60,788 nucleotides of DNA from a virus (IMGVR_UViG_3300028610_001111); one strand, 5' to 3'; counted from the first letter of the stretch, positions 6,636-54,555 are shown. Notes: a model not told the origin generated them from the sequence alone. Translations and numbers: made by a program.

Positions 6636-8657
6636 TTATTTCCAATCAAAGTCCCATCTTAAAATCCAGACTGATCCTCCATCTTCAAATATATAGTCTC
6701 TACTTATTCCGTCTGGATCTCCAGGCCATGATATTGACTGAACAGGATTAGCAGAATTTGAACTAATTGAAATAATATTAAACTCATAGTTTTGAAGGAT
6801 ATTTGTAGATTCAAATACTTGCGACATCTTATTGCTAGCTATACTGTCATTAGTTACTACAGAATCAAAATCAAAAACATCATAATAATGAGTATTAGTA
6901 AATGGACCTGATTCAGGTTCAAACCTTCGTCCGTCAAACGGAACATTCATTTTCATGTATAATTCTGTTGTATGACTGGTGTTTGTATCTATACCTGTAA
7001 TTGTGTGTGGATTATCAGGCAACCTTCGTTCTGAATCATACCCATATTTATTAATAGCATTATGATCGTAGATCTGCTTAGCATCTATCCTGTAAAATGC
7101 AGGGTCAATAGCAGAGTAAGTGCTTGCAGCCCATAATACATTCTGTGTTGATTCTGCTGCAAGAAAGTTTGTTGATGAAGCAATTGCTGTTCTAATCCAT
7201 CCGTTTGTTTGTCTATTCCCGAATGTTTCGTTTTCCTTTGTCATTATCATGTGTGACAGAATTTTCCACCGTTCATTGATATCTAAAGCGTAAAGCCTAT
7301 ATGGTCTATCACCGTAAAGAGCAAAGTTTCCTTTATACTGAATATTTATAACGTCACTTGGATTATCCCAACTAGCGGCAACAGTAATATTGCTAATATC
7401 ATACCATAACTCTGAAAGTGATATAGGATTTGTACTTCCAATAACTATAGTTTCTCCTGCAGCTATTGTAGTTTGATTACTTACTACTAAAACAGAACCT
7501 GTTATTGATACAGTTAATGATGAGAAAATATTTGTTCCATGAAGTCTATACTGTAATACAGGAAAATTATTTTCATCATAATATCGTTTATCAAATTCTT
7601 GTATATCTATAAATATACCATCTTCAGAACCTCTTGCTATTGTTGTTCCAGGCGGATTTACACCGAAAAACTGCGCAGTCCATGATGCAGTAAATATTCC
7701 TGATGCACTTGTATAATATGACAATATAGGACTATAAAAGCCTAACGGAGTAATAGCATATTCATTTGTTGATGCAGGGTTTTGTAGTATTTTTATGGAT
7801 GGGTTATTCATATGCGTATAGTAAATTCCATTTGTTATTTCAGAGTAAAGACCGTTTACGCCACTAGAACCAAATCCTCTAGCCTCCACGAAAACGTTAG
7901 ATCCGTATGGTCTATGTAATTCTGATAAAATATAGGAATTAGTTGTTGACGGTCGCCTAGTAAAAAAAGCATCACCACCCGCAATGTATCCCCATTCGTT
8001 AGTAATAGGATCACGAACAATCCCTACATCTAGAACTGTGAACATATTGGCCTTACTAGCTAGAAATACATTAGTTGCGTAACGCTGAAAAATATTTGTA
8101 GTGTTAACGATAAATGCTCCTGCAACAGTATGCACACTTGTTGCAGTCATACTTTGAGAAAACCAGTTAGTTATGTCATTGGTAGCAATATTTACGGCAA
8201 CAAATTTGTTTGCAGTGAAAAGATCGTCAATGGCTCCATCTAATTCGCTCATATAAAAATGAGTAATATACGTATGACCAGTAGCCAAAGATGAATCAGT
8301 TTTTGTATATTCAAATGCTCTACCTGCATTGGTTGTTGTTACAAGAATATTGGTTTCGAATATATTTGTGTATATTCCTGTATCTAAACCGTTCGTCCAT
8401 GGAATAATATTTGTACCCCATGTATCAAATACGCTCCATGTTTCGACTATCTCGATTGGAGGCAAACCAACTGCAAAAGTTTTTTCCACAATACTGCTAG
8501 CTATTTGACCGCGTATATAATTATTGGTTTTATTTACAATATTCCAATCGACACCGTTTGTAGATATTGGGAGATTTTGAAAGTCAGACAACACTGCATT
8601 AGATATTAGAAAAAAGCATAAACTATATAGTAGCAAACGCATTATAGTCACCCTCAT
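6636..8657 (-). CDS. large signal-peptide-bearing structural/tail-spike-like protein (673 aa)
   Basis: Track ORF. N-terminus MRVTIMRLLLYSLCFFLISNAVLS|DF has an n-h-c signal-peptide layout. The rest is T/N/S/Y-rich and looks beta-rich. The start may be the internal Met at 8642. Confidence 0.55.
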   Translation of the reverse strand: MRVTIMRLLLYSLCFFLISNAVLSDFQNLPISTNGVDWNIVNKTNNYIRGQIASSIVEKTFAVGLPPIEIVETWSVFDTWGTNIIPWTNGLDTGIYTNIFETNILVTTTNAGRAFEYTKTDSSLATGHTYITHFYMSELDGAIDDLFTANKFVAVNIATNDITNWFSQSMTATSVHTVAGAFIVNTTNIFQRYATNVFLASKANMFTVLDVGIVRDPITNEWGYIAGGDAFFTRRPSTTNSYILSELHRPYGSNVFVEARGFGSSGVNGLYSEITNGIYYTHMNNPSIKILQNPASTNEYAITPLGFYSPILSYYTSASGIFTASWTAQFFGVNPPGTTIARGSEDGIFIDIQEFDKRYYDENNFPVLQYRLHGTNIFSSLTVSITGSVLVVSNQTTIAAGETIVIGSTNPISLSELWYDISNITVAASWDNPSDVINIQYKGNFALYGDRPYRLYALDINERWKILSHMIMTKENETFGNRQTNGWIRTAIASSTNFLAAESTQNVLWAASTYSAIDPAFYRIDAKQIYDHNAINKYGYDSERRLPDNPHTITGIDTNTSHTTELYMKMNVPFDGRRFEPESGPFTNTHYYDVFDFDSVVTNDSIASNKMSQVFESTNILQNYEFNIISISSNSANPVQSISWPGDPDGISRDYIFEDGGSVWILRWDFDWK

Positions 8658-9348
8658 GTCTAATATCTGTCATTATATAATCAGCTCCTACTGCTAAAAA
8701 CTGGACAAGAGGAATATAGAATGTGTCAGCATTATTGTCTGATACGCTTGATGCATGTAACAATGTTGCTGAATCATTGTTTATATCTACACTTATGTAA
8801 ACCTCCTCTACACTACCCGTAAGAGTCACAGAGTCTTCTGAAAAAATTATTGTTGTATCACCTAATCTTATACGTCCTGCTGATATTGTGCATGTAGTGC
8901 CGCTTAAAGAGTGTTTAAGCGTTGTAACTCCTGAAGATGGTATTACTTCTTCAACAGGTACAGTAAATGGGATATCATCGTCTTCTACATTATCAAGCCT
9001 TGATTCTATATCATTTAGTCTAGATGATGTGATTTCGCCAGGTAACGGCAATGCAGTAGCCACCTCAATAGCAGGAGTTGTAATGTCTTCTATTGGTGTG
9101 ATAGGAATATCTACTGCATTGCCAATATCAATTTCTACTTCTATTTCATTATCTTCCTCTGTAGTTGCTTCAAAAATATTTTCAGGAAAGTATTTTTCTC
9201 TGAATAATTCAGATTTACTTTTTCTTGAAGTTTCAATAAGGATTTGGTTTTCTTCTTTATTTTCTCCAAGTTTAGAAGTTAGGGATGATAATTCTCCTTT
9301 AGCTTCAGACATGTTTCTTTCATCTACTAATGTTAAGTTATCACTCAT
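8623..9348 (-). CDS. hypothetical virion protein with acidic N-terminal half
   Basis: Track ORF, co-oriented and overlapping both neighbours by a few codons; no motif recognised. Confidence 0.5.
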   Translation of the reverse strand: MSDNLTLVDERNMSEAKGELSSLTSKLGENKEENQILIETSRKSKSELFREKYFPENIFEATTEEDNEIEVEIDIGNAVDIPITPIEDITTPAIEVATALPLPGEITSSRLNDIESRLDNVEDDDIPFTVPVEEVIPSSGVTTLKHSLSGTTCTISAGRIRLGDTTIIFSEDSVTLTGSVEEVYISVDINNDSATLLHASSVSDNNADTFYIPLVQFLAVGADYIMTDIRHEGDYNAFATI

Positions 9349-11570
9349 GTTATTTTAGATCTATAATGAGCAGCAAATCTTCCTTTCCCTGCATGATCCA
9401 TATTAGCTGCTATTAAATTATTGCCTCCAAGCGTTCCGTCTGCATGTGCGAGAGCAAGCCAGGTTTCAGCAGTTTCAAGATCTCTTGTATGATATATATA
9501 CACACCAATACTGCTAGCTATTCCAGTGCTATAATATCTAAACTTGTATCTGAAGTCATCCCAAAAATCTGTAGAACCGCTTCCTACATAAGGAGTTCTT
9601 GTGATAGTATAATTATTTGTTCCGTCAATATTAATAGATGGTGATACATTATTACTCTTGTCAGAATTAAGGAACGAAGAGAAATTTATAGCAGATCTCC
9701 AATTCTTATATATATAAGCTTCCCCATCTCCGTATCTTGTAGGCCAGTAAGAATAATGAGCAGCAGCTTTACTTCCTGCATAAACACTGTTTGCATTATA
9801 TGTTCCGTCTTCAAGCATAGAATTTGAAGCTTGATAAACACCGCCTAGTAAATTATCTTCTGCAGCTATTGGATTACTAACGTTTTTATATATCGTTGAT
9901 AAATTACCATTCAGATAAGTATTTGTAGATGAAAACTCGTATACTCCTGAATTGTTACTTTCAGTCCAAGCTATACGTCCATCATAAGTTCCATCAAGGT
10001 TGAATGAATTAGTTGCCTGATAAATTGATGCGCCTCCAGAAGGAGAAGGTGCAGATATAGGAGTCCTGCTGTTTTTATATATCCTTGATTTTTGAGTCTT
10101 GAATGCAGAGTTAAGGCTATTTATGGTTACATCATTTTCAACACTTGCTCTGTATATTTTTCTAGAATTATAAAGCCCATCTTCAGTCATGGAATTACTT
10201 GCTCTATAAATCCCTCCCTGAACATCATCATCTGCAGATATAGCATTATTGCTATCTTTATATATAGTTTCGGTCTCTTCCATTAATGCTGAATCTAATG
10301 ACTTATATTCGTATACGCCTGCACCTGTTCCGTATGTATACTGTTGCCTACCATCGTAAGTTCCATCCTCATTTATGCTTTGTGCAGCTCTATATATTCC
10401 TGAACCTGAATTAGCCGGGGCCGATATTGACGTGTTTGAGTTTTTGTATATTGTTGATTGTATTGCTTTGAATGCTGAAGACATGGAGGCAAATTCAATT
10501 ATATCAGCTTTGCTTTTTGTATATACAAGTCTAGCATCGTAACCACCAACAGAATTGAATGAATTAGTAGCCCTGTAGATTGATCCTTGCCCCCTGGAAT
10601 CAAGAGCATCAATAGGAGTTGATTTATTCTCATATATTATAGTGTCTTCTTCTGTTAGATGAGTTTCTAATGAATCATATCTTGCTACAAGATCATCAAA
10701 AACAGCAGTAGTTATAATAATATCTACAAGTTCTCCTCTGTACATAGGTCTTGCAGTTTTGCCAGCTGCTTCATTTGCATTTATAATTGTCTGAGCTAAG
10801 TCTTTTGGTACGTTCCATAAGTAAAGATCGTCTGTTTCTCTCGATCCTCCAACATTACTAAACGCCTCTAATGTGTATTGTGGTCTTGCCAACTTGACAG
10901 TAATTGTAGAACTACCATCATCTTGCTTTTCATGAAATGCCTGTACAAGGTGCCAGTTATTACCATATTCCATAGTCTCTATTATCACAGTATTGTAAAT
11001 TGTAGAAAGGCTAGCCATAAAGCTTTGAACCGCAGAATTAGATACTCCGCTAAATTCTGCATATATATACTTCTCTGGACTATCGCTTGTTTCGTTTCCT
11101 GTTCCAGTAGCATTGCCTGGAAGGTCATTACCTTTAGAAAGCCTTGCCTCTTCCCAATCTAGCTCTAGAGCCCATCCTTGCCTTAATGTCTGAGCTACCC
11201 AGTAAGTAGTAGTGCCCCGATCAAGCCTTTCAATTCTCCTTACAAATGCTTGTCTATATCTTCCTTTTAAAACTGTGTTGCCTACTTTCGGATCTACTAC
11301 GAATTTTGAAGCATTGCTATTTTTTACATCAGTATACCTATCAAGGAAATATCTTATCTGAGAAAATTCATCCTTTACGCCTAACTGCCATAATCTTGTG
11401 AACTGAGAATCACCATCTACAGAAACAGTTACATTATCTTCATTTATGAAAAATTCAGAAGCAGAATCCTTAAGCTTTTCTCTTATTTTGTTAGCTTCAA
11501 TGCTAGAAGTTGGGAGTAGTTCTCTGGACATTTCTACCTCTTCCTGTGTACATGTTTGTCCTGAAGTCAA
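9345..11570 (-). CDS. large tail protein with 5-6 tandem ~60-aa repeats (nozzle/tubular-protein-sized)
   Basis: Track ORF of 741 aa. The internal Met at 11531 (MSRELLP..., preceded by AGAGGT) is a more likely start. Repeat unit is IYKNSxxPIxAxxxxxGGIYRAxNSxxxDGTYxxR. Confidence 0.6.
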   Translation of the reverse strand: MTSGQTCTQEEVEMSRELLPTSSIEANKIREKLKDSASEFFINEDNVTVSVDGDSQFTRLWQLGVKDEFSQIRYFLDRYTDVKNSNASKFVVDPKVGNTVLKGRYRQAFVRRIERLDRGTTTYWVAQTLRQGWALELDWEEARLSKGNDLPGNATGTGNETSDSPEKYIYAEFSGVSNSAVQSFMASLSTIYNTVIIETMEYGNNWHLVQAFHEKQDDGSSTITVKLARPQYTLEAFSNVGGSRETDDLYLWNVPKDLAQTIINANEAAGKTARPMYRGELVDIIITTAVFDDLVARYDSLETHLTEEDTIIYENKSTPIDALDSRGQGSIYRATNSFNSVGGYDARLVYTKSKADIIEFASMSSAFKAIQSTIYKNSNTSISAPANSGSGIYRAAQSINEDGTYDGRQQYTYGTGAGVYEYKSLDSALMEETETIYKDSNNAISADDDVQGGIYRASNSMTEDGLYNSRKIYRASVENDVTINSLNSAFKTQKSRIYKNSRTPISAPSPSGGASIYQATNSFNLDGTYDGRIAWTESNNSGVYEFSSTNTYLNGNLSTIYKNVSNPIAAEDNLLGGVYQASNSMLEDGTYNANSVYAGSKAAAHYSYWPTRYGDGEAYIYKNWRSAINFSSFLNSDKSNNVSPSINIDGTNNYTITRTPYVGSGSTDFWDDFRYKFRYYSTGIASSIGVYIYHTRDLETAETWLALAHADGTLGGNNLIAANMDHAGKGRFAAHYRSKIT

Positions 11571-12420
11571 ACAATCTATTGTGCTTATCTCTAGGGCTTT
11601 GCGTTCTAGGATCAGAAGGATTTAGTTTTATAAGTGCTGACCGTGCTTCTCTTATCTCACTATCTGATACAGGTCTTCTTTTCTTTGCTTCAGGCATTTC
11701 TCTTAATACTTTAAGTTTCAGAAGCTTTGTGTCTGCCAATAGTATAGTATCTGTATCTTTTGTAAGTGGTCTTGGAGCAGTCCAGTAATAAAGTGTTATC
11801 TCTCTGTCCTGCAATTTTATATCATTAGGATCTAAAATAACAAGATAGTTCGTTTCTGGAGGGCGTACAACAAAAATTTCATCACTCCTATCTCGTCCGT
11901 AATACTTAGGAGATATTGTAAATACATTTGCTGCTTCTTCTGTTATCTGATAATAACCGTTTTCTCCCCCAATGCGTATCCATTCATCAACAACGCTAAC
12001 TCCACCGGCTACTATAGCTGCTAAATCGTCAGACTCAAAAGTAGTACCACCTGAATTTATCAATAGATCTTGAAAATAATACAAAGGATCTTGAGATGGA
12101 TGATATGTATAAGCTTTGTAAGCGTATTCATCAACTTCTATTGCGCTACTATTCCTTAAGATAAATTCTATATTATTAGTTTCGTCCTTTATTGCATCTA
12201 TTCCAAACAGATTAGACGGCAATATGATTCCATTTTCTCCTATATCTGTAAAATCTAAATCAAGATTTGTCCTAAAATTTGATATACTTATCTCTTTGAC
12301 TATTCTTTCGTACATTGTTCCTGTAAGAAGCTCGACTCTTTCCCTGAGATCATCATCATTAACACCTGTAACATCAGTAAGTATTTCATCAATAAAAGCT
12401 TTATATAACTGCATAAACAT
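11503..12420 (-). CDS. hypothetical tail/adaptor-region protein (305 aa)
   Basis: Track ORF in the structural operon; no motif recognised. Confidence 0.55.
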   Translation of the reverse strand: MFMQLYKAFIDEILTDVTGVNDDDLRERVELLTGTMYERIVKEISISNFRTNLDLDFTDIGENGIILPSNLFGIDAIKDETNNIEFILRNSSAIEVDEYAYKAYTYHPSQDPLYYFQDLLINSGGTTFESDDLAAIVAGGVSVVDEWIRIGGENGYYQITEEAANVFTISPKYYGRDRSDEIFVVRPPETNYLVILDPNDIKLQDREITLYYWTAPRPLTKDTDTILLADTKLLKLKVLREMPEAKKRRPVSDSEIREARSALIKLNPSDPRTQSPRDKHNRLFDFRTNMYTGRGRNVQRTTPNF

Positions 12421-12486
12421 GCCTTTCTTTTTGTAAAATCCTAATATTTAATATTATAGGTCTTTTGATTTAATCATCCAAGCATA

Positions 12487-12915
12487 TTATTTTGTTTCTG
12501 GAGCTGTTATTATACTCCTTTTACTGCAAGGATCTGCAGCACATTTCGCACCTAATGCAACAGCAGTATACACCCATGAAGCTCTAATAAGTATCATTCC
12601 GTCTTCCCTGCATATCTTAAATAGTATTTTGTCAGCTTCTTTTCTGTATATATTTTTATCAATTAAATCTTCTCTCATTAACTGATAAAGAGCATCATGC
12701 ACTAAAGATCCCCTCATGAATGTTTTGGTATCAATTGCAGGGCCTGAAGGACCGTCCCACGCATATCCTCTTTTAATATCAAGTATACCATCTTTAGATA
12801 ATTTTATAAATCCATCAGGAGAATAAATGTCTGTTTCATGTTTTATAGATATGATAACGCTGTAATCACTTACTAACTGATACTTGTACCCGCCTCTGTA
12901 ATGAATATATTTCAT
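12487..12915 (-). CDS. DUF1353-family protein
   Basis: Motifs ...RGYAWDGPSGPAIDT...RGSLVHDALYQL... match my recollection of the DUF1353 signature (WDG.S.P...HD.LY), which is common next to phage fibre genes. Confidence 0.65.
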   Translation of the reverse strand: MKYIHYRGGYKYQLVSDYSVIISIKHETDIYSPDGFIKLSKDGILDIKRGYAWDGPSGPAIDTKTFMRGSLVHDALYQLMREDLIDKNIYRKEADKILFKICREDGMILIRASWVYTAVALGAKCAADPCSKRSIITAPETK

Positions 12916-12916
12916 A

Positions 12917-13270
12917 TTATTTTCTCAGTAAAGATATCCATTCCTTTATAGGCACTCCTGCAAAATCAAGCAGAATAATAGTCATGCCTAATGCTACGAT
13001 TATTCTAGGTATATCCCGAGATTCTATAGGCTTGAAAACTATTCCCCACATCTTCTTGCCACCAATATCTATCTGTTCCTCTAATTTATTTAGCCTAGCT
13101 AAAACAGATGGCTTTCCATTTGATTCGCATAATGCTTTATGAGTTTTCTTTAATATTATTTTTATTTCTTCCTGGTCTTTTTCATAGGCTTCAAATTTAG
13201 GCTCACAAACCTTGTCATGCATTTGTTCTGCTGATAATACTCCCATTTTATTATCCCCCTCTTTTTTCAT
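12917..13270 (-). CDS. small membrane protein with one C-terminal TM segment (holin-like candidate)
   Basis: Track ORF. It has a charged helical N-terminal part followed by ...RIIVALGMTIILLDFAGVPI... Confidence 0.5.
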   Translation of the reverse strand: MKKEGDNKMGVLSAEQMHDKVCEPKFEAYEKDQEEIKIILKKTHKALCESNGKPSVLARLNKLEEQIDIGGKKMWGIVFKPIESRDIPRIIVALGMTIILLDFAGVPIKEWISLLRK

Positions 13271-13271
13271 A

Positions 13272-14534
13272 TCATTCCTTAATGGTATTGGGATGCGTCA
13301 AAAACTCTTTGCCGCCAGTCCGCCAAACCTTGCTGCCTGTTATAAATATTTTTCTAGGTATAACGCCCGTTACCGTCAAGACTGCATCAGTACCGACAAA
13401 GAAAATATCGCTTTGGAATTTTGCGCCAGAATCAATAGCACCATAGGTACCGGACCGTTGCGGCCAGCCGTCTATTTCCAGCGATGCTATTGTTTGCCCC
13501 GAGTTTGCATTCATGAATCTGATCACAGCGGTATTTTGCAGATTTGTGCTTGACTCTAAATTGACAGTTGCACTGACATCAAAAACATTATTGGTAAATA
13601 ATTGTAGCCGGGCATACGGATCAATCGTCACGTCATTCCTCAGGCAACCAGGAGCCTTTGCGGCAATTAGCCCCCATCCCAAACCGCCGGAACCTTCTCC
13701 ACCGATGAGAAGCGTGGCACCGCCGTAACTATTGGATGTCGTAAGAGACGTTTCTTTACCTGTATTAGATCCGTTGCGACGGTGTATACGTAAATCTCCC
13801 ACACCGCTAATTGTAGAGGCAAATGTATTCTGGTCATTCTGCGAGTTCTGTCCTATCGTGCCGCCGCCTATGCCGAGAATTATGGTGTTTTTCCAAACCC
13901 CGCTGTTGGCCTCAACGTTGATAGCGGCATCATCTAGACGTAGATTGCCTGACCAGTTATCGTCTTGTTCGTCCTGAAATCTTATGATTGCATTAGAAGC
14001 GATTATATCTCCAGTCCCATGAAAATTATCGGTATCATCAAAACGAAAATCTGCGCCCCCGGTTAGCGTTGTGTTTGTTCTATCACTGAAAAAACATAAA
14101 TCGCCAGAAAATGTAATATTGGTTATTGATGCGAATGCGCGTAATTCGGAGTTAGGCTTAATATAAGAAAGTGTATTTGTGCCAAAAACAATCATACCGC
14201 CTTTGTGCGAAATAATAGACCCATAACTGTTGGATACAGTTAAACCATTCATACCCAAACCCGTATAAGTAAATTTGAAACCCTCTTGGTCCATATCATT
14301 ATTTCCGCCGGCGGTTTTTATGTATGTGGAAATAGTTATATCTTCAGACAAAAATAAATCTGCCCCAGTATTATTTGTGGCAATCGCTGTAGGATCATCA
14401 GGAAAACCCACTCCAGATGTCCAATTATTCGTATCTGACCATATACGATTCGTTGTCACGATAGAGTATTCATAGCTATGAACATAACCCACATGTACAA
14501 GCAGAGAAAAAAGTACTATAAGCTTTTTACTCAT
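13272..14534 (-). CDS. secreted beta-helix protein with autotransporter-associated beta-strand (PATR-type) repeats
   Basis: The start is refined to ATG 14534, 8 nt into the upstream stop, giving MSKKLIVLFSLLVHVGYVHS|YEY. The body has G/T/N-rich ~30-aa periodic segments (...NSYGGATLLIGGEGSGGLG..., ...LTGGADFRFDD..., ...GDLRIHRRNGSNTGKETSLTTSNS...). No beta-barrel translocator domain is present. Confidence 0.65.
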   Translation of the reverse strand: MSKKLIVLFSLLVHVGYVHSYEYSIVTTNRIWSDTNNWTSGVGFPDDPTAIATNNTGADLFLSEDITISTYIKTAGGNNDMDQEGFKFTYTGLGMNGLTVSNSYGSIISHKGGMIVFGTNTLSYIKPNSELRAFASITNITFSGDLCFFSDRTNTTLTGGADFRFDDTDNFHGTGDIIASNAIIRFQDEQDDNWSGNLRLDDAAINVEANSGVWKNTIILGIGGGTIGQNSQNDQNTFASTISGVGDLRIHRRNGSNTGKETSLTTSNSYGGATLLIGGEGSGGLGWGLIAAKAPGCLRNDVTIDPYARLQLFTNNVFDVSATVNLESSTNLQNTAVIRFMNANSGQTIASLEIDGWPQRSGTYGAIDSGAKFQSDIFFVGTDAVLTVTGVIPRKIFITGSKVWRTGGKEFLTHPNTIKE

Positions 14535-14844
14535 TAGCCACCCATGAATCTTTCGCCCGCTGGTTAAGCAGATGATAGCAATATCCTCTAACAATAAACA
14601 TGTATTGCCCTGTCGGGATATTGTCATCATCAAGCACGGCCTTCACGGTGCTAAACGTAGTCTTTGGTTTGCCCGCCATGATCTTACGCGGTGTAGACGG
14701 AGAGAGGCCGTGAAGTGCATTGAGTTCAGCTAGTATGCTGTTGGCTGTGGCCTCGTTTGCGCACAGTACTTTGCCGTCTGGAGTTGCGGCATATGCTGCG
14801 AAGGCCAAAAATAAAACTATAAAAGAAATTATGTATCTATGCAT
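14527..14844 (-). CDS. small secreted protein (105 aa)
   Basis: Track ORF. N-terminus MHRYIISFIVLFLAFAAYA|ATPDG is a classical AxA signal peptide. Confidence 0.55.
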   Translation of the reverse strand: MHRYIISFIVLFLAFAAYAATPDGKVLCANEATANSILAELNALHGLSPSTPRKIMAGKPKTTFSTVKAVLDDDNIPTGQYMFIVRGYCYHLLNQRAKDSWVANE

Positions 14845-14845
14845 A

Positions 14846-17800
14846 TCACTCCCCTATGTAATGGCCTTGGAATAATGCAAATGCTTCATTTGCCACCCTG
14901 ACAGTAGAATCATTATTAAAAAGGAATACCTCAATATACTCATTAGTTGCTAGATGCATGCAGTAAACTGCCCTCAGCGTATTAAAAGAACTACCCGAAG
15001 CTGTAACCCTGGCCATAGATGGATTTTGTATGGCACCCGCTTTGTATAGCGCGATCCAACACCAAGCTTGATCTGCAACAGCATCCATCCTGATATTAGC
15101 GACAAAATGATAACTTCCCGGCACTTGAGGATTATACCTAAATAAATTCGTATCATAGCCAGAGTAATTATCATCTATAATTAAATCTGCCTCCATTCTG
15201 GTCGCTATTGCATTTGTAATATTTTGTTGTGTAGACATATGCACAGTGAAAAATGGAGGCTGAGTTAATGAAACATTTGTAGATGCAAGATCATTTATGT
15301 TAGTATAGGAAAAATTATTGCCGTTCACATTATTTGTTTGAGCCCTGCTATCAAGTGGACCGCCCGATGAAGCCGTTGCCGCAGCAGCCTGCCATCTTTG
15401 ATCCGTTGCATTCCATTTAGCGATTTGTCCGTCTGTAGGTGTGTTAGTGGTTATAGATCCTGCGCCTGCTACGTAGTTAGAAAGCACGCTTCCATCAAGA
15501 GTAATTGGACCAGCACCTAGAATTCTGTATCCACTCGCAAATCTCGAAGTCCACTGATCGTCAAGAGAGCTAGTTTGCGCAGTGCCGTCAGACCACACAA
15601 CGCTATTCTCATTTGAAGATATTGCGCCTTCTCCCAAAGCCATGGAATCAGTAGCGGTTGCACCTGAATTATTGCCCAAAACAATAGCACTTGAACCAGA
15701 TGCATTATTACCAGCCCCAAGGGATAAAGAACTTGCGCCACTTGCAACCGTTGTATCACCAATAGCTATAGCAGCACTCGAACTAGCTGTCGCATCGTTT
15801 CCTATTGCGATTGACCTAAAAGCATTCGCCTCTGCACTGTTTCCAATTGCACAAGAGTCAGAACCAGAAGCATCAGACAATGTTCCAGACGCAAATGAAT
15901 CGCCGCCCGTTGCAGTCGCTGATGTGCCGACATTAAGATTATCGGCCACGGATAAATCATCGTTTATGTTGACATCTAGCGTTACTGTCAAATTACTTGT
16001 TATTCCGACATCAGCATCAAACGTTTCGTCCTGAGTTGTCAGCGCAACCGTACCAGCACCGCCATTAGCTTCGGGCATAGTGTACGTCATGTCTCCGCCT
16101 GTAGCGTCCGCGTTGAAACGTATGATGTTTGTGGGCGCGACAGCATCAAAGATAGTAAGCTCGGCATCTGTAAAATTTACTTTAGCCTCTGGACTCGATG
16201 CCCCGCCCCCCGCCGAACCAACAGAAGTACCAAGTTTAGGTGTAATCGTGACATCAAATGTACCGCCTCCAGCAGGGGTCCGGTGGAGGGTAGCAAAACC
16301 TACAACAATGAATTGACCGGGTAACCGTGGGTCAGAGACCGAATACACGGCATGCTGATTAACATCTTGCTGTGCGTTGGCTTGGCTGGCATAATCATCA
16401 GTAGATAAATTAAGATGGACCTCCCCAACACTGCCAGTTGTACCACTGCTGACATGCTTCATAACCACCACATTAAAATAACTTACTGAACTGCTAAGAA
16501 CAGCATTGCTATTAGCATCTACGGTGATCTGATTAAGATTAGTGATCATCTGCTTACCATCGGGATGATTATCTATTATGTAAAAAACGCTACCATTAGT
16601 AGCGGTCACAGCAGGGAATGTTTGCTCATGCAATTGTGCCGAAATTCCCGCCGTAATGGTTAAATATACATCATCATTCGCGCCGCCCTGAGTAGTAACA
16701 ACAGCCGCCAAATCTCCACCTTCTAGCCACCGAGACGGCTCAAGTCTAACCCTATGCATTAACCTTTGTACAGCCGATCTATCATCACCGTTTGGCCCCG
16801 ATACTTCATCCGTATGACGGCGTATCGAATATAGGCCAGTATTCTGCGTAAACAGGGCGTCAAGCAGACCTATATCAAACATCGGAGAATATTCTCCTGT
16901 AGGGAATGTAGTACCATTCGTGACCCCGCCAGCGAGAGCATATACATAATTCATTTGCAAACTGTTTGTGGTACCGGGTGTAAGCGTAAGATTTATCGGG
17001 GTAGCAAACTGCACAAGTGTATCGTCGAAAAATACATCAAAAGACCCTGATCCATCAGTTGTTGTAACTGCTATAGTTACGTTTGTCCCATCTGAAGAAT
17101 ATGTAAGTACTGGCCTGTTGGTCGGCATAGCATTAAGTAGTTGTCGCACCGTAGATATTTGCGAGATAGTAGCTGCATCCTGTGGGTTTACGCCGTCCAC
17201 AACATTAATCACCGAGTTAGTGCCAACGTTAAAAGTCTCAAGCGCAAGATCAGAGTAGCCATTAGCTGTTTCTGTGCCGCTCCGGAACTTGGAGGTTGCA
17301 TGCGTATTAGTAGTTCCAGCCGCCGCCGTGTTGCTCTCTGAGATTTTCCATGTGTTGGTATCTAAAATTGCAATGTTAGCTTGATTTGAATATATTATAA
17401 CCCATTGATCTAGGTTTGTAGCAATATTATTTGCAACTCCGGACGTATTGACGGCATTGCTATCTGAGTTAGCCGAAATCCAAAATTGATTGGTAAGTAT
17501 AAGATTCTGTTGTATCGTATTGGTATCAAGGTTCGCCGTTACCTGAGCCTCTAAGTTTGTAAATGCCTGTGATGCTGCTATCTCACTATTTAATCCAAAA
17601 ATCTCGTTTGCCATTATAGCCGGATGAATATTGATGTTAACATTACCGGTGACAGGATTTATGATACCGAGTTTACCAAGCCTCACGATATAATTAGTCT
17701 CTCCTGTCGGAGCGTTTGTCTGCGCTAAGCCAAACGTCGTTGCAGACAAGAATAAATCTGATCCGCTGTTACTTCCTATAGCCGTTGTATTCAATCCGCC

Positions 17801-18913
17801 TACAGACCCAAAAATCGTACATTTTCCATTTTCATTATTGAGTATTTCCTCTGTCGCAAAAGCTAACGCCTTCGCTGTTGTTTCATTATTTGCTCGTGCA
17901 AGGGCAACTGTTTCCTTTTGACCTATTTGTCCGGTAACATACACTACCTGACCATTTGTTATTGTAGATCCAGTATTATTTCTGCCGGGAAACCATAACT
18001 CTTCTCCTACGTTCATTGTGACTTCAGAGCTTTCAAAATACATTTTCCAGGAATCGTCTGTAGCATTATAAAATACACGGCCTGCCTGGTGTGCTGGATC
18101 TGCCGACAAGGGCTCAAAATCTTGATATTCTACGCCCGTAACAGCATTGCTACCGTGATCCTGATCGCCTGTGAAATCAATGATGCCGTCACGACGTATG
18201 ACTGTAGCATCGACTGCAATTGTATTTGTACCTCCAGACACAGTAACATCAATACCATCGCCACCATTAATATTTACTACTGAAGTAATATTTGTCCATA
18301 TAGGCGCAGCTAAACCTTGAGATAAGAGAATATAACCTGAAGTTCCTGCTGATATGCTTATCCAGTTTGTTCCATTAAAATAGGTTAAGTCTCCTACTGC
18401 AGAACCATCTTGATCTGAAAGAAAAGGCCATGTTGCTGTAGATCCAGAAAATGTATATAAACTTGGATTTATACTTCTAACAAAACTTAGAGTTCCTGAA
18501 TCAACTTCAGGAGCCCTTTTAATAGTTATTATTCCTTCAGGGTCTGAATTTACGTAATTATTAGTATGAGATGCTGTTATAGCGCAATACCATTTTTCAA
18601 TAGGAGAGCCGAATGTGTTTGTCATTGCCTGGAAACTTACAGTATTTGATGTGACTACTCCTGCTATGCTTACCATGTTGTCAGAATTTCTATTCCTTCC
18701 AAACTTGAAAGTAAAAGTCCATCCTGTAGCATCCCATAAATCATCACCATCATACATTGTGGCAACTATATTTGGAGTATTTCCAACCTTAGTCCTTAAA
18801 TCCCATTGTTGTCCAGTGAGTTGAAAATTAGCATTTATAGGTTTTGTAGGTGGAGCTGAATAGCAAAAAGAACATGCAATAAAGCATAAAGCAAAAATAA
18901 ACTGTTTCTTCAT
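14846..18913 (-). CDS. chimeric tail fibre/adhesin (1,355 aa) with signal-like N-terminus, YadA-head-like repeats and a C-terminal C1q/TNF-like globular domain
   Basis: N-terminus is MKKQFIFALCFIACSFCYS|APP. At about 15560-15930 it reads ...SCAIGNSAEANAFRSIAIGNDATASSSAAIAIGDTTVASGASSLSLGAGNNASGSSAIVLGNNSG... (SxAIGxxAxA repeats). The last ~135 aa (about 14849-15262) read ...PGSYHFVANIRMD...ALYKAG...NEYIEVFLFN..., which resembles the C1q jelly-roll pattern. Confidence 0.7.
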   Translation of the reverse strand: MKKQFIFALCFIACSFCYSAPPTKPINANFQLTGQQWDLRTKVGNTPNIVATMYDGDDLWDATGWTFTFKFGRNRNSDNMVSIAGVVTSNTVSFQAMTNTFGSPIEKWYCAITASHTNNYVNSDPEGIITIKRAPEVDSGTLSFVRSINPSLYTFSGSTATWPFLSDQDGSAVGDLTYFNGTNWISISAGTSGYILLSQGLAAPIWTNITSVVNINGGDGIDVTVSGGTNTIAVDATVIRRDGIIDFTGDQDHGSNAVTGVEYQDFEPLSADPAHQAGRVFYNATDDSWKMYFESSEVTMNVGEELWFPGRNNTGSTITNGQVVYVTGQIGQKETVALARANNETTAKALAFATEEILNNENGKCTIFGSVGGLNTTAIGSNSGSDLFLSATTFGLAQTNAPTGETNYIVRLGKLGIINPVTGNVNINIHPAIMANEIFGLNSEIAASQAFTNLEAQVTANLDTNTIQQNLILTNQFWISANSDSNAVNTSGVANNIATNLDQWVIIYSNQANIAILDTNTWKISESNTAAAGTTNTHATSKFRSGTETANGYSDLALETFNVGTNSVINVVDGVNPQDAATISQISTVRQLLNAMPTNRPVLTYSSDGTNVTIAVTTTDGSGSFDVFFDDTLVQFATPINLTLTPGTTNSLQMNYVYALAGGVTNGTTFPTGEYSPMFDIGLLDALFTQNTGLYSIRRHTDEVSGPNGDDRSAVQRLMHRVRLEPSRWLEGGDLAAVVTTQGGANDDVYLTITAGISAQLHEQTFPAVTATNGSVFYIIDNHPDGKQMITNLNQITVDANSNAVLSSSVSYFNVVVMKHVSSGTTGSVGEVHLNLSTDDYASQANAQQDVNQHAVYSVSDPRLPGQFIVVGFATLHRTPAGGGTFDVTITPKLGTSVGSAGGGASSPEAKVNFTDAELTIFDAVAPTNIIRFNADATGGDMTYTMPEANGGAGTVALTTQDETFDADVGITSNLTVTLDVNINDDLSVADNLNVGTSATATGGDSFASGTLSDASGSDSCAIGNSAEANAFRSIAIGNDATASSSAAIAIGDTTVASGASSLSLGAGNNASGSSAIVLGNNSGATATDSMALGEGAISSNENSVVWSDGTAQTSSLDDQWTSRFASGYRILGAGPITLDGSVLSNYVAGAGSITTNTPTDGQIAKWNATDQRWQAAAATASSGGPLDSRAQTNNVNGNNFSYTNINDLASTNVSLTQPPFFTVHMSTQQNITNAIATRMEADLIIDDNYSGYDTNLFRYNPQVPGSYHFVANIRMDAVADQAWCWIALYKAGAIQNPSMARVTASGSSFNTLRAVYCMHLATNEYIEVFLFNNDSTVRVANEAFALFQGHYIGE

Positions 18914-18914
18914 A

Positions 18915-19430
18915 TTATCTCCTTCCGACTAGTCTTAGCCATACTGAATTAGTATTGCTGAAAACGAAAGGAATAATATCTCCACGCTGTATATAGTGAT
19001 TGCTCAGAGCTGATACATCTGCTTGCTTTCTTGTTTCGCTAGTATTAGTCCATGATACAATACTGTTAGTTATGAGTGTAGTCACAGTGTTTGTAAGCCC
19101 ATGAAGATAATTCGTTTGAATATTTCCGAATTCATTTGTAACTACACGAGTTTCCTCAAACTGTTCTTCTGTATGTCTGAAAACATGACTCATTGAATTT
19201 GTGCTAGTAGATGCAGCAGTATACCATGTTTCAATTTCTGCAGGGTACCACATGTACGTCAAATTATTAGTAAATGAATACGATCCACCAATAACGTTTT
19301 TCCATTCAATAAAATAAAGTTCACCGGCTATAAGATCTTGAGCGTACTCACGCCTTTCAGGTTGAGATTCTCCCATCATATTAATGCATATCATTAATAT
19401 ACAGACGAAGAATATAGATATTTTTTTCAT
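18915..19430 (-). CDS. small secreted protein (171 aa)
   Basis: The start is refined to ATG 19430, with GGAGTG 6 nt upstream. N-terminus is MKKISIFFVCILMICINMMG|ESQ. Confidence 0.55.
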   Translation of the reverse strand: MKKISIFFVCILMICINMMGESQPERREYAQDLIAGELYFIEWKNVIGGSYSFTNNLTYMWYPAEIETWYTAASTSTNSMSHVFRHTEEQFEETRVVTNEFGNIQTNYLHGLTNTVTTLITNSIVSWTNTSETRKQADVSALSNHYIQRGDIIPFVFSNTNSVWLRLVGRR

Positions 19431-19500
19431 GATACACTCCAAATTAGAAACTGTGGAAGCCTGCACGGCCATACCTAATGCAGACCTCCACATCAATTTT

Positions 19501-20322
19501 TTAGACTTCAGCGTTACGGTAATTTATGAGACATTTAGCGCCATCTGCCATTGATACAGTAGATGTAAGTTCAATAAGAATCGGTCCTTTAACTCTCAGA
19601 GGTCTTGTTGACCAATCCCATAGAGTAGTCCATGAGTTATCAGGAACTAATCTTGTATAACCCAGTTCTTCTTCTTGGGTATAATCAGTCTCTTCAGGAT
19701 CGTAACTCATCTTGAATTCACAATCCGTTCCTGAGTTAGAATCTACAAGAGCCTGTATAGACACTATATCAATCTCTCCGCCTGCTCTCTTACCATTAAG
19801 GTCGTCAGGGTTTCCGAGACGCATAGACATATAAGTAAGTTCTGAAGCATCTCTGTACAGATAATCAGTAAACAGAGGGCTCATTGTCTCTTCAGTAAGA
19901 TCAATGAAATCATCTGTATCAATAGAGTAATCAGCAGCAGCATCAAGCCTGACCATCCACAAACCTACCGGAGTTGTGTTTAATCTCAATGCATTGACAG
20001 CATCTATCAGTGCCCCAAGTGTAGTTACTTGTGCATGAGTAGGAGACGAATCAACAGCACTAGGATCTGCTACAGCAGCAGCAGCAGCAGAAAACTGATA
20101 CTGAGTATAACTAGTTGCGCTCACACCTATATTCAGCAATATTATAAGTTTGCTATCGTCAGACCCATTATTATCTATAGTTATTGCAGCATACAGATCT
20201 TGAGTTTCTCCACTGCCTTTTCTGATATCCTTAAACTTAAGACGGAATAAAGGATTTTTTGTATCAGCTTTTTGTATCTCAGCAGTTCTTACAGGAAGTT
20301 TTTCAACCATATTCATATTCAT
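19501..20322 (-). CDS. hypothetical virion protein (273 aa)
   Basis: Track ORF in the structural operon; no signal peptide and no motif recognised. Confidence 0.55.
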   Translation of the reverse strand: MNMNMVEKLPVRTAEIQKADTKNPLFRLKFKDIRKGSGETQDLYAAITIDNNGSDDSKLIILLNIGVSATSYTQYQFSAAAAAVADPSAVDSSPTHAQVTTLGALIDAVNALRLNTTPVGLWMVRLDAAADYSIDTDDFIDLTEETMSPLFTDYLYRDASELTYMSMRLGNPDDLNGKRAGGEIDIVSIQALVDSNSGTDCEFKMSYDPEETDYTQEEELGYTRLVPDNSWTTLWDWSTRPLRVKGPILIELTSTVSMADGAKCLINYRNAEV

Positions 20323-20340
20323 TCTCCTTTATTTTTTTTA

Positions 20341-21141
20341 TTACATTTTGAACGCAGGAATAACATATTCATTAGTTGCTCCAGTCAACCTTATCTTGAA
20401 GTACAGAGCATTAGTTGTTGCTGCAGGCAAATCATTTATTGCCATGGTGCTACTTCCTGGAGCGTTAGTCACTGTAACTATAGGAAGGCCTGTAATCTCT
20501 AGAGTAGTGTCAAAAACAGCGGCTTCGTCTACAGATAAAGTTCCTTGTATATCTGTAGCTACAGCAGTGTCAGCAATCTCTACAGATGTAGCAGTAGCAG
20601 CACCTATAAGCAATGAACCTGCAGCTTGAGTGTCAAGACCTGCGCTTGCATCTACAGTTACGCTATCAGCATCAAAAGTAGAAATGACAGATAACGCACC
20701 TGCAGAAGTTAGATTCAGTACCTCTGTAGTATGATTAAGTACTGATAGATCATTACCAGTAGCTTCAGATTCAACTGTCCACGTATCTGCATTATCATCG
20801 CCATCGTCAGCGTCAAGAATAAGTTTTGCATCTGCATTCTCTCCTGCTGTAAACGTTGCAACAGATACTATGCCGCTTGCTGTCTGAGTTGCTGATATAT
20901 CTCCTGCACTGGCAGTTATATCACCAGCAGAAGTAGTAAGATCACCAGAATTAGTAAAGGCTCCTGTTACAGTAAGACCATTAGGCAGAGTTGCTCCATC
21001 ATAGAGTCTGTGCCAATTAGCAGTACTTTTCCTAACCTCTTCTCTTATCTGGTTGTTCAGAATATCTTCTATAGTCTCTGCCATAGAAAAATTTGCAATT
21101 ACGCAAACACAAGTCATTAATATTACGATATATTTATTCAT
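20341..21141 (-). CDS. S/T/A/D-rich signal-peptide-bearing structural (decoration/fibre-like) protein
   Basis: N-terminus is MNKYIVILMTCVCVIANFSMA|ETI. The body is low-complexity and beta-rich (...TSAGDITASAGDISATQTASG...). Confidence 0.55.
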   Translation of the reverse strand: MNKYIVILMTCVCVIANFSMAETIEDILNNQIREEVRKSTANWHRLYDGATLPNGLTVTGAFTNSGDLTTSAGDITASAGDISATQTASGIVSVATFTAGENADAKLILDADDGDDNADTWTVESEATGNDLSVLNHTTEVLNLTSAGALSVISTFDADSVTVDASAGLDTQAAGSLLIGAATATSVEIADTAVATDIQGTLSVDEAAVFDTTLEITGLPIVTVTNAPGSSTMAINDLPAATTNALYFKIRLTGATNEYVIPAFKM

Positions 21142-35796: not shown

Positions 35797-35918
35797 TTGA
35801 ACAGGAAAAAGTATGCAGAGACTGCGGAAAACCAACAGGCAACAGGATATGGGTAAGATGCGCGAATTGCCACTTTGTAAAGAAGTTGAAAAGCTGGAGC
35901 AAGCAAAGGCCATCATGA
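35793..35918 (+). CDS. 41-aa zinc-ribbon ORF not in the track
   Basis: Hand translation MIEQEKVCRDCGKPTGNRIWVRCANCHFVKKLKSWSKQRPS*; ATGA overlaps at both ends. Confidence 0.5.
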   Translation: MIEQEKVCRDCGKPTGNRIWVRCANCHFVKKLKSWSKQRPS

Positions 35919-40483: not shown

Positions 40484-40498
40484 CCTTAAGGAGATATC

Positions 40499-54538: not shown

Positions 54539-54555
54539 ATAAGGAGAAAAAGATA

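Follow-up and report, generated by a model that had tools for sequence, protein, structure and literature searches.

The window (the whole 60,788-nt stretch of DNA that was analysed) represents the full genome of an uncultured, short-tailed phage of the SU10-like kind. The capsid gene is followed by a block of structural genes in which six that encode predicted signal peptides lie among signal-less ones.

21768..22994, minus strand: major capsid protein, SU10-type HK97 fold (Pfam SU10_MCP, E = 1.4e-19)
20341..21141, minus strand: 266-aa protein, predicted signal peptide (AAGGA Shine-Dalgarno; flagged by the heuristic described below)
19501..20322, minus strand: 273-aa protein without signal peptide, the best-conserved gene of the block
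18915..19430, minus strand: 171-aa protein, predicted signal peptide (GGAG Shine-Dalgarno before ATG; heuristic-flagged)
14846..18913, minus strand: 1,355-aa fibre, predicted signal peptide (perfect GGAGA Shine-Dalgarno)
14527..14844, minus strand: 105-aa protein, predicted signal peptide aa 1-19, nt 14788-14844 (GGGGAG Shine-Dalgarno; heuristic-flagged)
13272..14534, minus strand: 420-aa protein, predicted signal peptide aa 1-20, nt 14475-14534 (ORF, start and heuristic)
12487..12915, minus strand: DUF1353 protein, 142 aa, without signal peptide (Pfam DUF1353, E = 1.1e-6)
11503..12420, minus strand: adaptor-like protein, 305 aa, without signal peptide (Pfam SU10_adaptor, E = 1.1e-4, under its cut-off)
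9345..11570, minus strand: nozzle-like protein, 741 aa, without signal peptide (position after the adaptor, as in SU10)
8623..9348, minus strand: tail-needle-like protein, 241 aa, without signal peptide (weak similarity to SU10 gp18, same position)
6636..8657, minus strand: 673-aa protein, predicted signal peptide (ORF, start and heuristic)

The order of the module, head, fibres, nozzle, needle, is of the SU10 type when set against KM044272. The window shares with Escherichia phage SU10 (Kuravirus) the capsid, portal, adaptor, nozzle and needle genes; in both, fibre genes (gp12 and gp13, the long tail fibres, in SU10) follow the capsid gene, and small membrane or holin/lysis-type genes come after them. 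The kinship is distant. The SU10_portal and SU10_adaptor matches are weak, both under their Pfam cut-offs, and BLAST-level similarity is confined to the needle (E ~1e-4, small database), where the 241-aa protein matched gp18 with E = 1.3e-4 in a database of 12 proteins. SU10 also differs in that gp10 to gp20 lack hydrophobic N-termini, its fibres have no sequence similarity to those of the window, and its adaptor gene stands before the fibre block rather than after it. The adaptor-like protein is 37-44% identical to its orthologues. The nozzle-like protein gave no match in family searches; tandem repeats of roughly 55 aa are visible in its translation. The 273-aa protein, which aligns with its relatives at 44-52% identity, found no match in Pfam, PHROG or PDB, and its single-sequence AlphaFold model was unusable (pLDDT 40.8). 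It may be a cytoplasmic partner or dock.

All six ORFs with signal peptides were present on the minus strand at the coordinates listed above. In four of them the start is the first start codon past the upstream stop. Upstream TTG starts are possible for 18915-19430 and 13272-14534; the ATG/MKK-type starts of these two genes have GGAG-like Shine-Dalgarno sites and agree with the N-termini of all orthologues. The 266-aa gene is the second after the capsid gene, and its product, which has no Pfam or NCBIfam match, carries a predicted signal peptide at aa 1-21 (nt 21079-21141, MNKYIVILMTCVCVIANFSMA|E). The predicted signal peptides of the other proteins span aa 1-20 or 1-22 in the 171-aa protein (nt 19365-19430), aa 1-19 in the fibre (nt 18857-18913), which starts 1 nt past the upstream stop, and aa 1-24 in the 673-aa protein (nt 8586-8657), where the alternative start Met6 keeps the signal peptide. 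The 105-aa gene is called in the JGI assembly and absent from the ENA and Logan calls, and no clear orthologue of it was found in the relatives. In a natural variant (a JGI contig), codon 194 of the 420-aa gene is changed from TGG to a TAG stop, and thus this gene, at least, is dispensable. The 105- and 420-aa genes may both be accessory. A PATR beta-helix, which the preliminary description had assigned to the 420-aa protein, was not borne out: there was no Pfam match at E ≤ 0.01 and no NCBIfam match at E ≤ 0.1, and a PDB sequence search likewise gave none.

Neighbouring genes in the block overlap by up to 35 nt or are separated by up to 70 nt, and the signal-peptide genes are translationally coupled to the signal-less structural genes. 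No promoter or terminator of their own was found; promoter-like and terminator-like sites occur at the level expected by chance from shuffled sequence, and none brackets these genes. Given this spacing and the chance-level sites, the view that the genes form one tightly coupled operon stands. A moron or superinfection-exclusion gene would be a small, variable accessory gene with an autonomous promoter and terminator; here such sites are lacking around the genes, and the four main positions are conserved in relatives.

Signal peptides were called where a basic n-region was combined with a Kyte-Doolittle score of 2.0 or more in the best window of 9-10 residues and with small residues at positions -3 and -1, so the calls rest on a simple heuristic together with conservation. 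The heuristic flagged 11 of the 89 genes in the window, all six of the above among them. The flagged genes are concentrated in the post-capsid structural block, with 6 of 15 there and 5 of 74 elsewhere (Fisher p = 0.0024). The six N-termini are 19-24 aa long, basic and hydrophobic, and end in small-x-small; each n-region is positively charged, and the best Kyte-Doolittle windows are 2.6-3.4. The small-x-small site, which had been described for each protein, holds strictly for five; the exception is the 171-aa protein, with Met at -3 (MMG|E) and an alternative cleavage site two residues further (GES|Q). By inspection, none of the six has a canonical lipobox, [LVI][ASTVI][GAS]C, the FIAC of the fibre being atypical. 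The hydrophobic cores, with much Leu, Ile, Phe and Val, lead into AXA-type sites, unlike a SAR domain, which is weakly hydrophobic, rich in Gly, Ala and Ser, and has no cleavage site. The six N-termini are thus predicted to be Sec-type signal peptides for signal peptidase I, and the earlier claim of six such signals in the tail/fibre module is upheld, the starts being backed by ribosome-binding sites and operon coupling.

The preliminary description had proposed a survey of related genomes for the same pattern, and this strengthened what is a real observation. With the capsid protein as the query, 58 homologues were found, and about a dozen related contigs, with 39-60% GC and capsid identity down to 40%, were examined. 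These keep signal peptides at the same gene positions, and the 273-aa orthologues never have a hydrophobic N-terminus. Positional orthologues of the 266-aa protein, all with a signal peptide, are present in L004, L006, L007, L020 (two copies), L021/L033, L029, L031, L032 and L034, and orthologues of the 171-aa protein, again all with a signal peptide, in L004, L006, L007, L020, L029, L031, L032 and L034; the latter signal peptides align to end mostly in G|E or A|E. At the 673-aa position L029 has a 387-aa gene that also starts with a signal peptide, MRRLLLALLLIPVSSFG|A. The K/R n-region, the apolar core and A/G/S at -1 are kept among the relatives, while the actual residues are unrelated. What is selected thus seems to be the presence of a signal peptide and not its exact residues.

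HMMER was run exhaustively with a query cut down to the mature N-domain of the fibre, free of the signal peptide, and gave a family of 129 representatives of 50%-identity clusters. By the heuristic, 119 of them have a canonical signal peptide directly upstream of the N-domain, and as many carry a net charge of +1 or more ahead of the core; the remaining 10 comprise truncated calls, a single over-extended start, and weak or marginal matches. The presequence has a median of 20 residues (range 15-42) and the apolar run a median of 14 (IQR 10-17), with only about 10% of the runs at 19 or more. On these lengths the run is typical of cleaved signal peptides, not of transmembrane anchors. Nearly all of these 119 members, divergent as they are, have small residues at -1/-3, and so do the other proteins' orthologues. 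Every member with context examined lies a few genes downstream of an SU10-type capsid gene. As judged from these sequences, the trait is a property of the clade, not of a single genome.

The fibre itself has two recognisable regions.

18449..18856, minus strand: N-terminal beta-sandwich domain, BppU-N-like, aa 20 to about 155, putative virion-attachment domain
15590..15976, minus strand: YadA-head-like repeat region, aa about 980-1108 (PDB, Pfam and NCBIfam matches)

Structure prediction of fibre N-termini docked to the tail had been suggested earlier as a check. The AlphaFold2 model of the N-domain, made from 13 sequences, shows a beta-sandwich at moderate confidence (pLDDT 62.5), with a predicted hydrophobic N-terminal helix. 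The best PDB match of the model in Foldseek is the N-domain of BppU (ORF48) of the lactococcal phage TP901-1 (3uh8, 4v96; E about 1e-5), followed by phage neck and baseplate proteins, and against BFVD there were 190 matches at E ≤ 1e-3, with BppU, baseplate and tailspike proteins ranking first. Thus the window's fibre probably shares with BppU and other BppU_N proteins the fold of the N-domain, the one by which phage fibres are usually anchored to the virion, and like them it joins a variable distal part to an N-terminal anchor, but it has no sequence match to Pfam BppU_N; at E ≤ 0.01 Pfam finds only YadA_head in the 1,355-aa protein. To our knowledge, BppU proteins lack signal peptides and are assembled in the cytoplasm. 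Ig-like sandwiches occur in cell-surface adhesins too.

The distal part had been described as YadA-like and C1q-like. The YadA-head-like repeats are matched in the PDB (BpaC, E = 3.4e-7; Hep_Hag, E = 2.7e-5), while Pfam YadA_head reaches 22.4 bits where its cut-off is 25 and NCBIfam YadA gives E = 8.6e-5, far under that model's cut-off. The C1q part is reduced to a weak resemblance at the C-terminus (collagen X NC1, E = 0.54). The fibre has in common with the trimeric autotransporter adhesins YadA and BpaC a predicted Sec signal peptide and putative YadA-head-like repeats; it differs from them in its phage-type anchor N-terminus, in the position of its gene in a phage structural operon, and in having no C-terminal YadA_anchor beta-barrel or other outer-membrane anchor or sorting signal in Pfam or NCBIfam searches. 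Among the relatives the N-domain is conserved, whereas the distal parts are unrelated, with lengths from under 500 to 1,753 aa; some relatives have Laminin_G_3 domains. The GC content is 34% in the N-domain, like the phage backbone, 42-47% further on, and 46% in the YadA-head-like region, so the fibre gene is mosaic. A conserved N-domain with mosaic distal parts is a hallmark of receptor-binding proteins, and the fibre looks like a virion protein.

Clade-wide export signals on tail-fibre-like proteins suggest that part of the host-recognition gear folds outside the cytoplasm. We propose that Sec exports the fibres, that they are cleaved and fold outside the cytoplasm, and that they become attached at lysis to particles made in the cytoplasm; we give this reading a probability of about 0.45. 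It builds on the observed signal-peptide architecture and its conservation across the clade, the phage-fibre-like fold, the modular build and the structural-operon position. The 1,355-aa fibre would be made as a Sec preprotein, as would, probably, the 266-, 171-, 105-, 420- and 673-aa proteins that accompany it. Late in infection, these fibre-type proteins would be targeted to the Sec translocon, and signal peptidase I would take off the signal peptide of roughly 20 residues. The periplasm or extracytoplasmic space would then be where the YadA-head-like and lectin-like adhesin domains fold and form oligomers, and the cytoplasm where capsid, portal, adaptor, nozzle and needle come together and DNA is packaged. 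The two would meet only once the inner membrane is breached at lysis, after which the BppU-N-like N-domain of the fibre would dock onto the particle, so that the signal-peptide proteins would be part of the virion. The time in which periplasmic fibres could meet cytoplasmic particles is short, which speaks against this reading.

Virion proteins with Sec signals that are added outside the cytoplasm are known from the Inoviridae, in which pVIII and the receptor-binding pIII have cleavable Sec signal peptides and join the particle there. However, those are filamentous ssDNA phages extruded through the envelope without lysis, whereas the phage of the window has dsDNA, an HK97 capsid, a terminase and a portal, and its head must assemble in the cytoplasm. 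We know of no tailed phage that joins periplasmic fibres to cytoplasmic particles at lysis, and no precedent for a signal-peptide fibre was found in the literature or among 50,697 GenBank phage records; signals on fibre-like genes of a tailed phage are as unexpected as they first seemed. If the proposal is correct, extracytoplasmic fibre maturation is a route not described for tailed phages.

Could the proteins instead end up in the periplasm or on the surface of the infected cell, without ever becoming part of the particle? There they might mask or destroy receptors, sparing progeny from debris, exclude superinfecting phages, or act as adhesins. The canonical predicted Sec signals fit this, as do the YadA-head-like and, in relatives, Laminin_G_3 domains, which are typical of extracytoplasmic proteins, and the dispensability of the 420-aa gene. 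Signal-peptide proteins that act at the infected-cell envelope are also encoded near fibre genes elsewhere (T5 Llp, phi80/N15 Cor, lambda Lom and Bor), but these are small proteins, either lipoproteins or outer-membrane proteins, and in many cases morons that bring their own signals. The proteins of the window, by contrast, are large, modular and fibre-like and have no lipobox; their genes are universal in the clade and translationally coupled to those for structural proteins. Tail-fibre-type proteins PblA and PblB of Streptococcus mitis phage SM1 are found on the bacterial surface as adhesins as well, but these have no signal peptides and reach the surface by holin/lysin-mediated leakage from a monoderm host of a temperate phage. 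Such a non-virion role is possible but doubtful. The fibre N-domain is predicted to have a phage virion-anchor fold, the build is that of receptor-binding proteins, the genes occupy the SU10 fibre slot throughout the clade, and the rest of the ~60.6-kb genome yielded no candidate for a fibre without a signal peptide. An independent promoter or terminator and an outer-membrane anchor are lacking. Furthermore, the scanned proteins include no integrase and the phage is thus probably lytic, which leaves little time for late-expressed surface remodelling.

An uncleaved hydrophobic N-terminus, serving as an inner-membrane tether that places tail or fibre assembly or as a hydrophobic plug inside the virion, is disfavoured and, in our opinion, unlikely. 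The predicted N-terminal helix of the fibre and the atypical Met of the 171-aa protein are consistent with it, and SAR endolysins provide a precedent for release from a membrane tether at lysis, but the apolar run is not long enough to form a stable transmembrane helix, the entire presequence is about 20 residues, the small residues at -1/-3, kept across divergent sequences, would be superfluous for an anchor, and the cores are not of the Gly/Ala-rich, weakly hydrophobic SAR type. Less probable still is an unusual host cell plan or assembly site, for instance a widened periplasm or compartments bounded by internal membranes, in which signal-peptide proteins and capsids share a compartment before lysis. 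The clade is seen in metagenomes only (sewage and other environments, as sample labels suggest), it has no relative among the GenBank phages, and reference genomes gave only 27%-identical capsids, all of which would suit an exotic host. However, the 39-60% GC span suggests many different hosts rather than one exotic lineage, the Shine-Dalgarno sites are ordinary and the replication genes bacterial DnaB-type, and nothing in the genome hints at a special compartment. Of the explanations raised in the preliminary description, maturation of the host-recognition apparatus outside the cytoplasm fits best, because the fibre N-domain has a predicted virion-anchor fold and the genes hold the SU10 fibre position.

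A lipobox is present in a few relatives, which fits the non-virion role better than the proposed one. The 161-aa accessory protein of L004 (LLGC) is a true lipoprotein by this motif, and a few members of the fibre family, such as P0109 (LLAGC), also have one, which suggests membrane tethering. The signal-less DUF1353 protein, which adjoins the fibre genes, matches phrog_1158 (E = 2.9e-24), labelled 'tail assembly chaperone' in PHROG. If the fibre is exported, this chaperone and its client would be in different compartments, which speaks against export. It is possible that the DUF1353 protein serves other tail parts, or that it keeps the preproteins export-competent.

The window ends in identical 144-bp direct repeats (1-144 and 60645-60788), and independent assemblies of the same phage come from JGI 3300009788 and ENA ERZ27251120, each of about 60.77 kb, with a 39.5-kb contig of it in Logan SRR5210996. 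Since the ends are identical and the same sequence is found in the three assemblies, the window is a complete phage genome, circular or terminally redundant. The plus strand carries replication genes, including a DnaB-type helicase, an SNF2 helicase, an SMC-like ATPase, and several HNH endonucleases, and GGAG-type ribosome-binding sites are seen upstream of most genes. The nearest capsids among GenBank phages are those of Bacillus phages, at 27% identity, so none is close. Between about 28.4 kb and 2.2 kb, the minus strand bears the late operon, which includes the genes listed below.

Late-operon genes of the window, in order of transcription (all on the minus strand)
26412-28391, minus: terminase
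24544-26412, minus: portal, weak SU10_portal match
between portal and capsid, minus: scaffold-like protein
21768-22994, minus: SU10-type major capsid protein, Pfam SU10_MCP E = 1.4e-19
20341-21141, minus: 266-aa protein, candidate signal peptide
19501-20322, minus: 273-aa protein
18915-19430, minus: 171-aa protein, candidate signal peptide
14846-18913, minus: 1,355-aa fibre, candidate signal peptide
14527-14844, minus: 105-aa protein, candidate signal peptide
13272-14534, minus: 420-aa protein, candidate signal peptide
12917-13270, minus: 117-aa protein with a C-terminal transmembrane segment, no signal peptide, directly after the fibre block
12487-12915, minus: DUF1353 protein, PHROG 1158 'tail assembly chaperone' (E = 2.9e-24), no signal peptide
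11503-12420, minus: adaptor-like protein (305 aa), weak SU10_adaptor match
9345-11570, minus: nozzle-like protein, 741 aa
after the nozzle, minus: needle-like protein, 241 aa
6636-8657, minus: 673-aa protein, candidate signal peptide
5591-6619, minus: GT4 glycosyltransferase, directly after the 673-aa gene
after the glycosyltransferase, minus, last listed: 1,127-aa protein

All six ORFs that had been read as beginning with Sec-type signal peptides were found as the preliminary description gave them. A heuristic flags 11 of the 89 window genes, all six among them; to be flagged, a protein needs net positive charge in its n-region, a Kyte-Doolittle window that reaches ≥2.0 within its first 30 residues, and small residues at −3/−1. 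The other five flagged genes encode small membrane-type proteins (at 37400, at 38480, and a trio at 53805-54882). Flagged genes account for 6/15 in the post-capsid block versus 5/74 elsewhere (Fisher p = 0.0024). The small-x-small cleavage site is exact in five of the proteins, while the site first read in the 171-aa protein has Met at −3, with another candidate following two residues later. For two of the six genes, a longer ORF is possible from an upstream TTG; the ATG starts have Shine-Dalgarno sequences and match every orthologue. Chance or mis-called starts are ruled out by these Shine-Dalgarno sites and by the retention of the feature in every orthologue. The earlier reading of one tightly coupled operon also stands, with intergenic distances from a 35-nt overlap to a 70-nt gap. 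Because of this tight spacing, and because promoter-like and terminator-like matches around the six genes are no more than at shuffle level, the genes look embedded in the operon rather than like autonomous morons. No phage-encoded secretion or processing gene (secretin, signal peptidase, Dsb) was found among the scanned window proteins. A disulfide rationale for export is not supported, as the mature proteins have 0-5 Cys with no pattern.

The survey of related genomes proposed in the preliminary description shows signal peptides kept at the same gene positions. The capsid protein has 58 homologues in metagenomes, through which contigs of relatives were fetched, and further loci were reached via the adaptor and the fibre N-domain, the mature, predicted β-sandwich domain directly after the signal peptide. 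The metagenome loci examined were L004/L005 (47% GC), L006 (58% GC), L007 (52% GC), L020, L021/L033, L029 (56% GC), L031 (50% GC, a contig of NCBI assembly GCA_043955735.1 being among the loci), L032, L034/L035, and the more distant L022/L023 (60% GC); two of the loci, in which the pattern recurs, came from a scan of viral contigs with a narrow N-domain alignment. In the nearer relatives, the gene order is identical wherever the stretch was recovered: capsid, an acidic protein of about 130-190 aa, a signal-peptide protein, a protein of about 270 aa with no signal peptide, a signal-peptide protein of about 170 aa, and the large signal-peptide fibre, often followed by more signal-peptide proteins, including Laminin_G_3 proteins and one true lipoprotein. 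The signal peptides of the relatives have a common n/h/c architecture without shared sequence. The ~270-aa protein is the best conserved in the block (44-52% identity) and lacks a signal peptide in every relative examined. In L029, the gene after the needle, the position of the 673-aa gene in the window, also begins with a signal peptide. A protein of >2,300 aa is encoded in L022 (1-4310) directly upstream of the portal, at the position of the terminase in the window.

A word-indexed homology search with the fibre N-terminus gave no match, and its profile version gave only 12 proteins. When fibre residues 20-175, leaving out the signal peptide, were used to query 1.84 billion cluster representatives, 129 were obtained at E ≤ 1e-3, the shortest of 124 aa and the longest of 1,753 aa. 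Query residues 1-3 align with protein residues 20-25 in nearly all of these. A P-x-x-P-I/N-F motif is conserved in the family. The heuristic is passed by 119/129, and the presequences have a median length of 20 residues; those that fail, 10 in number, comprise calls beginning within the signal peptide or within the domain, a single over-extended start, and marginal matches. Apolar runs have a median length of 14 residues (IQR 10-17), with about 10% at 19 or more, and from their sequences the presequences look like cleavable Sec signals, not membrane anchors. Lipoprotein-type rather than type I signals (LLAGC, LLGC) are seen in the family representatives P0109, P0071, and P0133 and in the L004 accessory gene at 18326-18811, which would imply membrane tethering of some fibre-family versions.

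In the fibre, the first ~150 mature residues are conserved, and the remaining parts are not alignable between fibres. The GC content of the gene is 34% in the signal peptide and N-domain and 42-47% in the distal 1,200 residues, compared with 38% for the structural module. Such a mosaic is typical of receptor-binding proteins, and it suggests horizontal acquisition of the distal modules. An AlphaFold2 model of residues 1-175 (13 sequences, pLDDT 62.5) shows an N-terminal helix, corresponding to the signal peptide, and a nine-strand β-sandwich. The top Foldseek matches for the N-domain model are the N-domain of TP901-1 BppU (ORF48), 3uh8 and 4v96, with E about 1e-5; connector/neck proteins of phages Bas63 and Sf14 and the NF5 baseplate are also near the top, and generic immunoglobulin domains rank below the phage virion proteins. 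A search of BFVD gave 190 matches at E ≤ 1e-3, headed by 'BppU domain protein', 'baseplate component', and 'tailspike'. The Pfam BppU_N family has no sequence match in the fibre, and the resemblance to BppU is at the level of the fold, in a model of moderate confidence. Residues ~980-1108 are similar to YadA/BpaC head repeats, and no autotransporter anchor was found in the fibre. The C1q label given earlier to the fibre is weak at best, its C-terminus giving E = 0.54, and the PATR label is not supported, as no PATR repeats were detected in the 420-aa protein.

Comparison with SU10 places the signal-peptide genes. The order in SU10 is capsid gp9, gp10, adaptor gp11, long-fibre gp12 and gp13, holin, lysis protein, short fibre gp16, nozzle gp17, and needle gp18. 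The window follows the same logic, with the fibre block followed by the 117-aa transmembrane protein, the DUF1353 protein, the adaptor, the nozzle, and the needle-like protein, which is weakly similar to SU10 gp18; the 117-aa and DUF1353 pair takes the place of the SU10 holin and lysis genes. By analogy, the signal-peptide genes occupy the slot in which this structurally characterised relative encodes its fibres, whereas none of SU10 gp9-gp20 has a hydrophobic N-terminus. No signal-less fibre candidate was recognised elsewhere in the window genome. The 741-aa nozzle-like protein contains 5-6 tandem repeats of about 55 aa with the motif IYKNS..ISAP...GGIYRA.NS..DGTYDGR, which may be the blades of a propeller-like nozzle domain.

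For the 266-, 273-, 171-, 105-, 420-, and 673-aa proteins, no family assignment was obtained. A PDB profile search and PHROG and Pfam scans gave nothing significant for the 273-aa family, a PDB profile search gave no match for the 171-aa family, and a single-sequence AlphaFold model of the 273-aa protein (pLDDT 40.8) was unusable. In the JGI assembly of the phage (L001, 18461-19723), a single G-to-A change at window position 13954 converts Trp194 (TGG) of the 420-aa gene to TAG, dividing this signal-peptide gene in two. This could reflect dispensability of the gene, variation within the population, or an error.

It is well supported that the six proteins carry functional-looking, selected Sec signals, and equally that the fibre resembles a virion receptor-binding protein. 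The simplest combination is that the fibre-type proteins would be exported by Sec, cleaved, and folded outside the cytoplasm, and would then dock, when lysis breaches the inner membrane, on particles that were assembled in the cytoplasm. This corresponds to the earlier suggestion that the host-recognition apparatus matures outside the cytoplasm, which fits best by virtue of the anchor fold and the SU10 synteny, and to which we assign a probability of about 0.45. The docking step is physically plausible, since fibre or tailspike attachment in known phages such as P22 and T4 is late, self-contained, and feasible in vitro. Export would make sense in that adhesin or lectin domains of the kinds seen in the distal modules normally reach their fold outside the cytoplasm. 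Points against are the short time at lysis, the adjoining chaperone-like gene with no signal peptide, the lipobox in a few family members, and the basis of the proposal in sequence and a model. The main rival, which we consider less likely, is an exported cassette that is conserved but never part of the virion. In its favour are those adhesin domains, the lipoprotein neighbours in relatives, and the natural nonsense variant of the 420-aa gene; against it are the anchor fold of the N-domain, the modular evolution of the fibre, the synteny, and the fact that no other fibre was recognised in the genome.

The short hydrophobic cores and conserved AXA-type sites make it improbable that the N-termini remain uncleaved as anchors, and an exotic cell plan of the host, which would have to extend over a clade spanning 39-60% GC, is more improbable still. 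Export with docking at lysis would have a wider consequence, which we put forward tentatively: tailed phages of a large and widespread clade would have their receptor-binding apparatus exported by the host Sec system and matured outside the cytoplasm, and the infectious virion would be completed only at envelope breach, in a two-compartment morphogenesis.

Textbook morphogenesis of tailed phages is wholly cytoplasmic, and to our knowledge no Caudoviricetes model system shows a two-compartment route; its confirmation would establish a new mode of morphogenesis for tailed phages. We found no report in the full-text literature of a tailed phage whose tail fibres carry signal peptides, and three divergent N-domains had no homologue in 50,697 GenBank phage records. 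What the sequences predict is a whole clade whose tail fibres are made as secretory precursors. In function, the nearest analogues are pIII/pVIII of filamentous phages; in structure, the nearest relatives are the BppU_N-type fibres and the SU10 module. The obligatory presence of export signals in at least 119 divergent clusters of fibre-type proteins points either to a second, extracytoplasmic assembly arm or to a conserved class of fibre-like effectors that phages export and that had so far gone unnoticed. Structural-gene annotation would change with either outcome, because signal peptides now count as evidence against a structural role; either would also explain the phage borrowing of host adhesin domains that fold only outside the cytoplasm, and would bear on receptor-binding-protein engineering and host prediction. 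Now that the family has been delimited and its cleavage sites predicted, the question can be tested directly.

With regard to the host, the closest capsids in a scan of genome contigs have 27% identity and are in CPR, Gammaproteobacteria, and Kiritimatiellae MAGs. A short overall signal-peptide length is more typical of diderm than of monoderm bacteria, and the short signal peptides here hint at a diderm host. Many distant family members are predicted to be cleaved before Gln, but the Bacteroidetes 'Q-rule' was dropped as a host clue, as the A|Q-type contigs examined have 60% GC and GGAGG ribosome-binding sites. The trio at 53805-54882 (plus strand) consists of neighbouring small genes of envelope type, whose products have a signal peptide (172 aa), a lipobox-like LSSGC (72 aa), and Cys-rich motifs together with an N-terminal transmembrane segment (108 aa). 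It may be a lysis or spanin-like cassette; no significant family match was found, the best being a sub-threshold NCBIfam match of the 172-aa protein, and a spanin-based case for a diderm host is unproven.

The early region encodes an RmlD-like reductase/epimerase (39129-39917, plus strand), which together with the GT4 glycosyltransferase could modify host surface glycans or phage proteins. Four HNH endonuclease genes lie on the plus strand (35813-36382, 36375-36854, 43707-44081, and 57038-57424). A pentapeptide-repeat protein fused to DUF5758 (44923-45672, plus strand; E about 1e-27 for either part) is a possible DNA mimic or candidate anti-defence protein. The sole tRNA gene (40390-40485, plus strand) has a Cys anticodon (GCA) and a class-II build, with a 7-bp variable-arm stem (UUGAGUA...UACUCAA), a 3-bp D-stem, and discriminator A. 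It is called a tRNA by both ARAGORN and Rfam (36 bits), and the long arm is borne out by folding. Since the Ser and Leu aminoacyl-tRNA synthetases recognise the long variable arm and not the anticodon, this tRNA might insert another amino acid at Cys codons.
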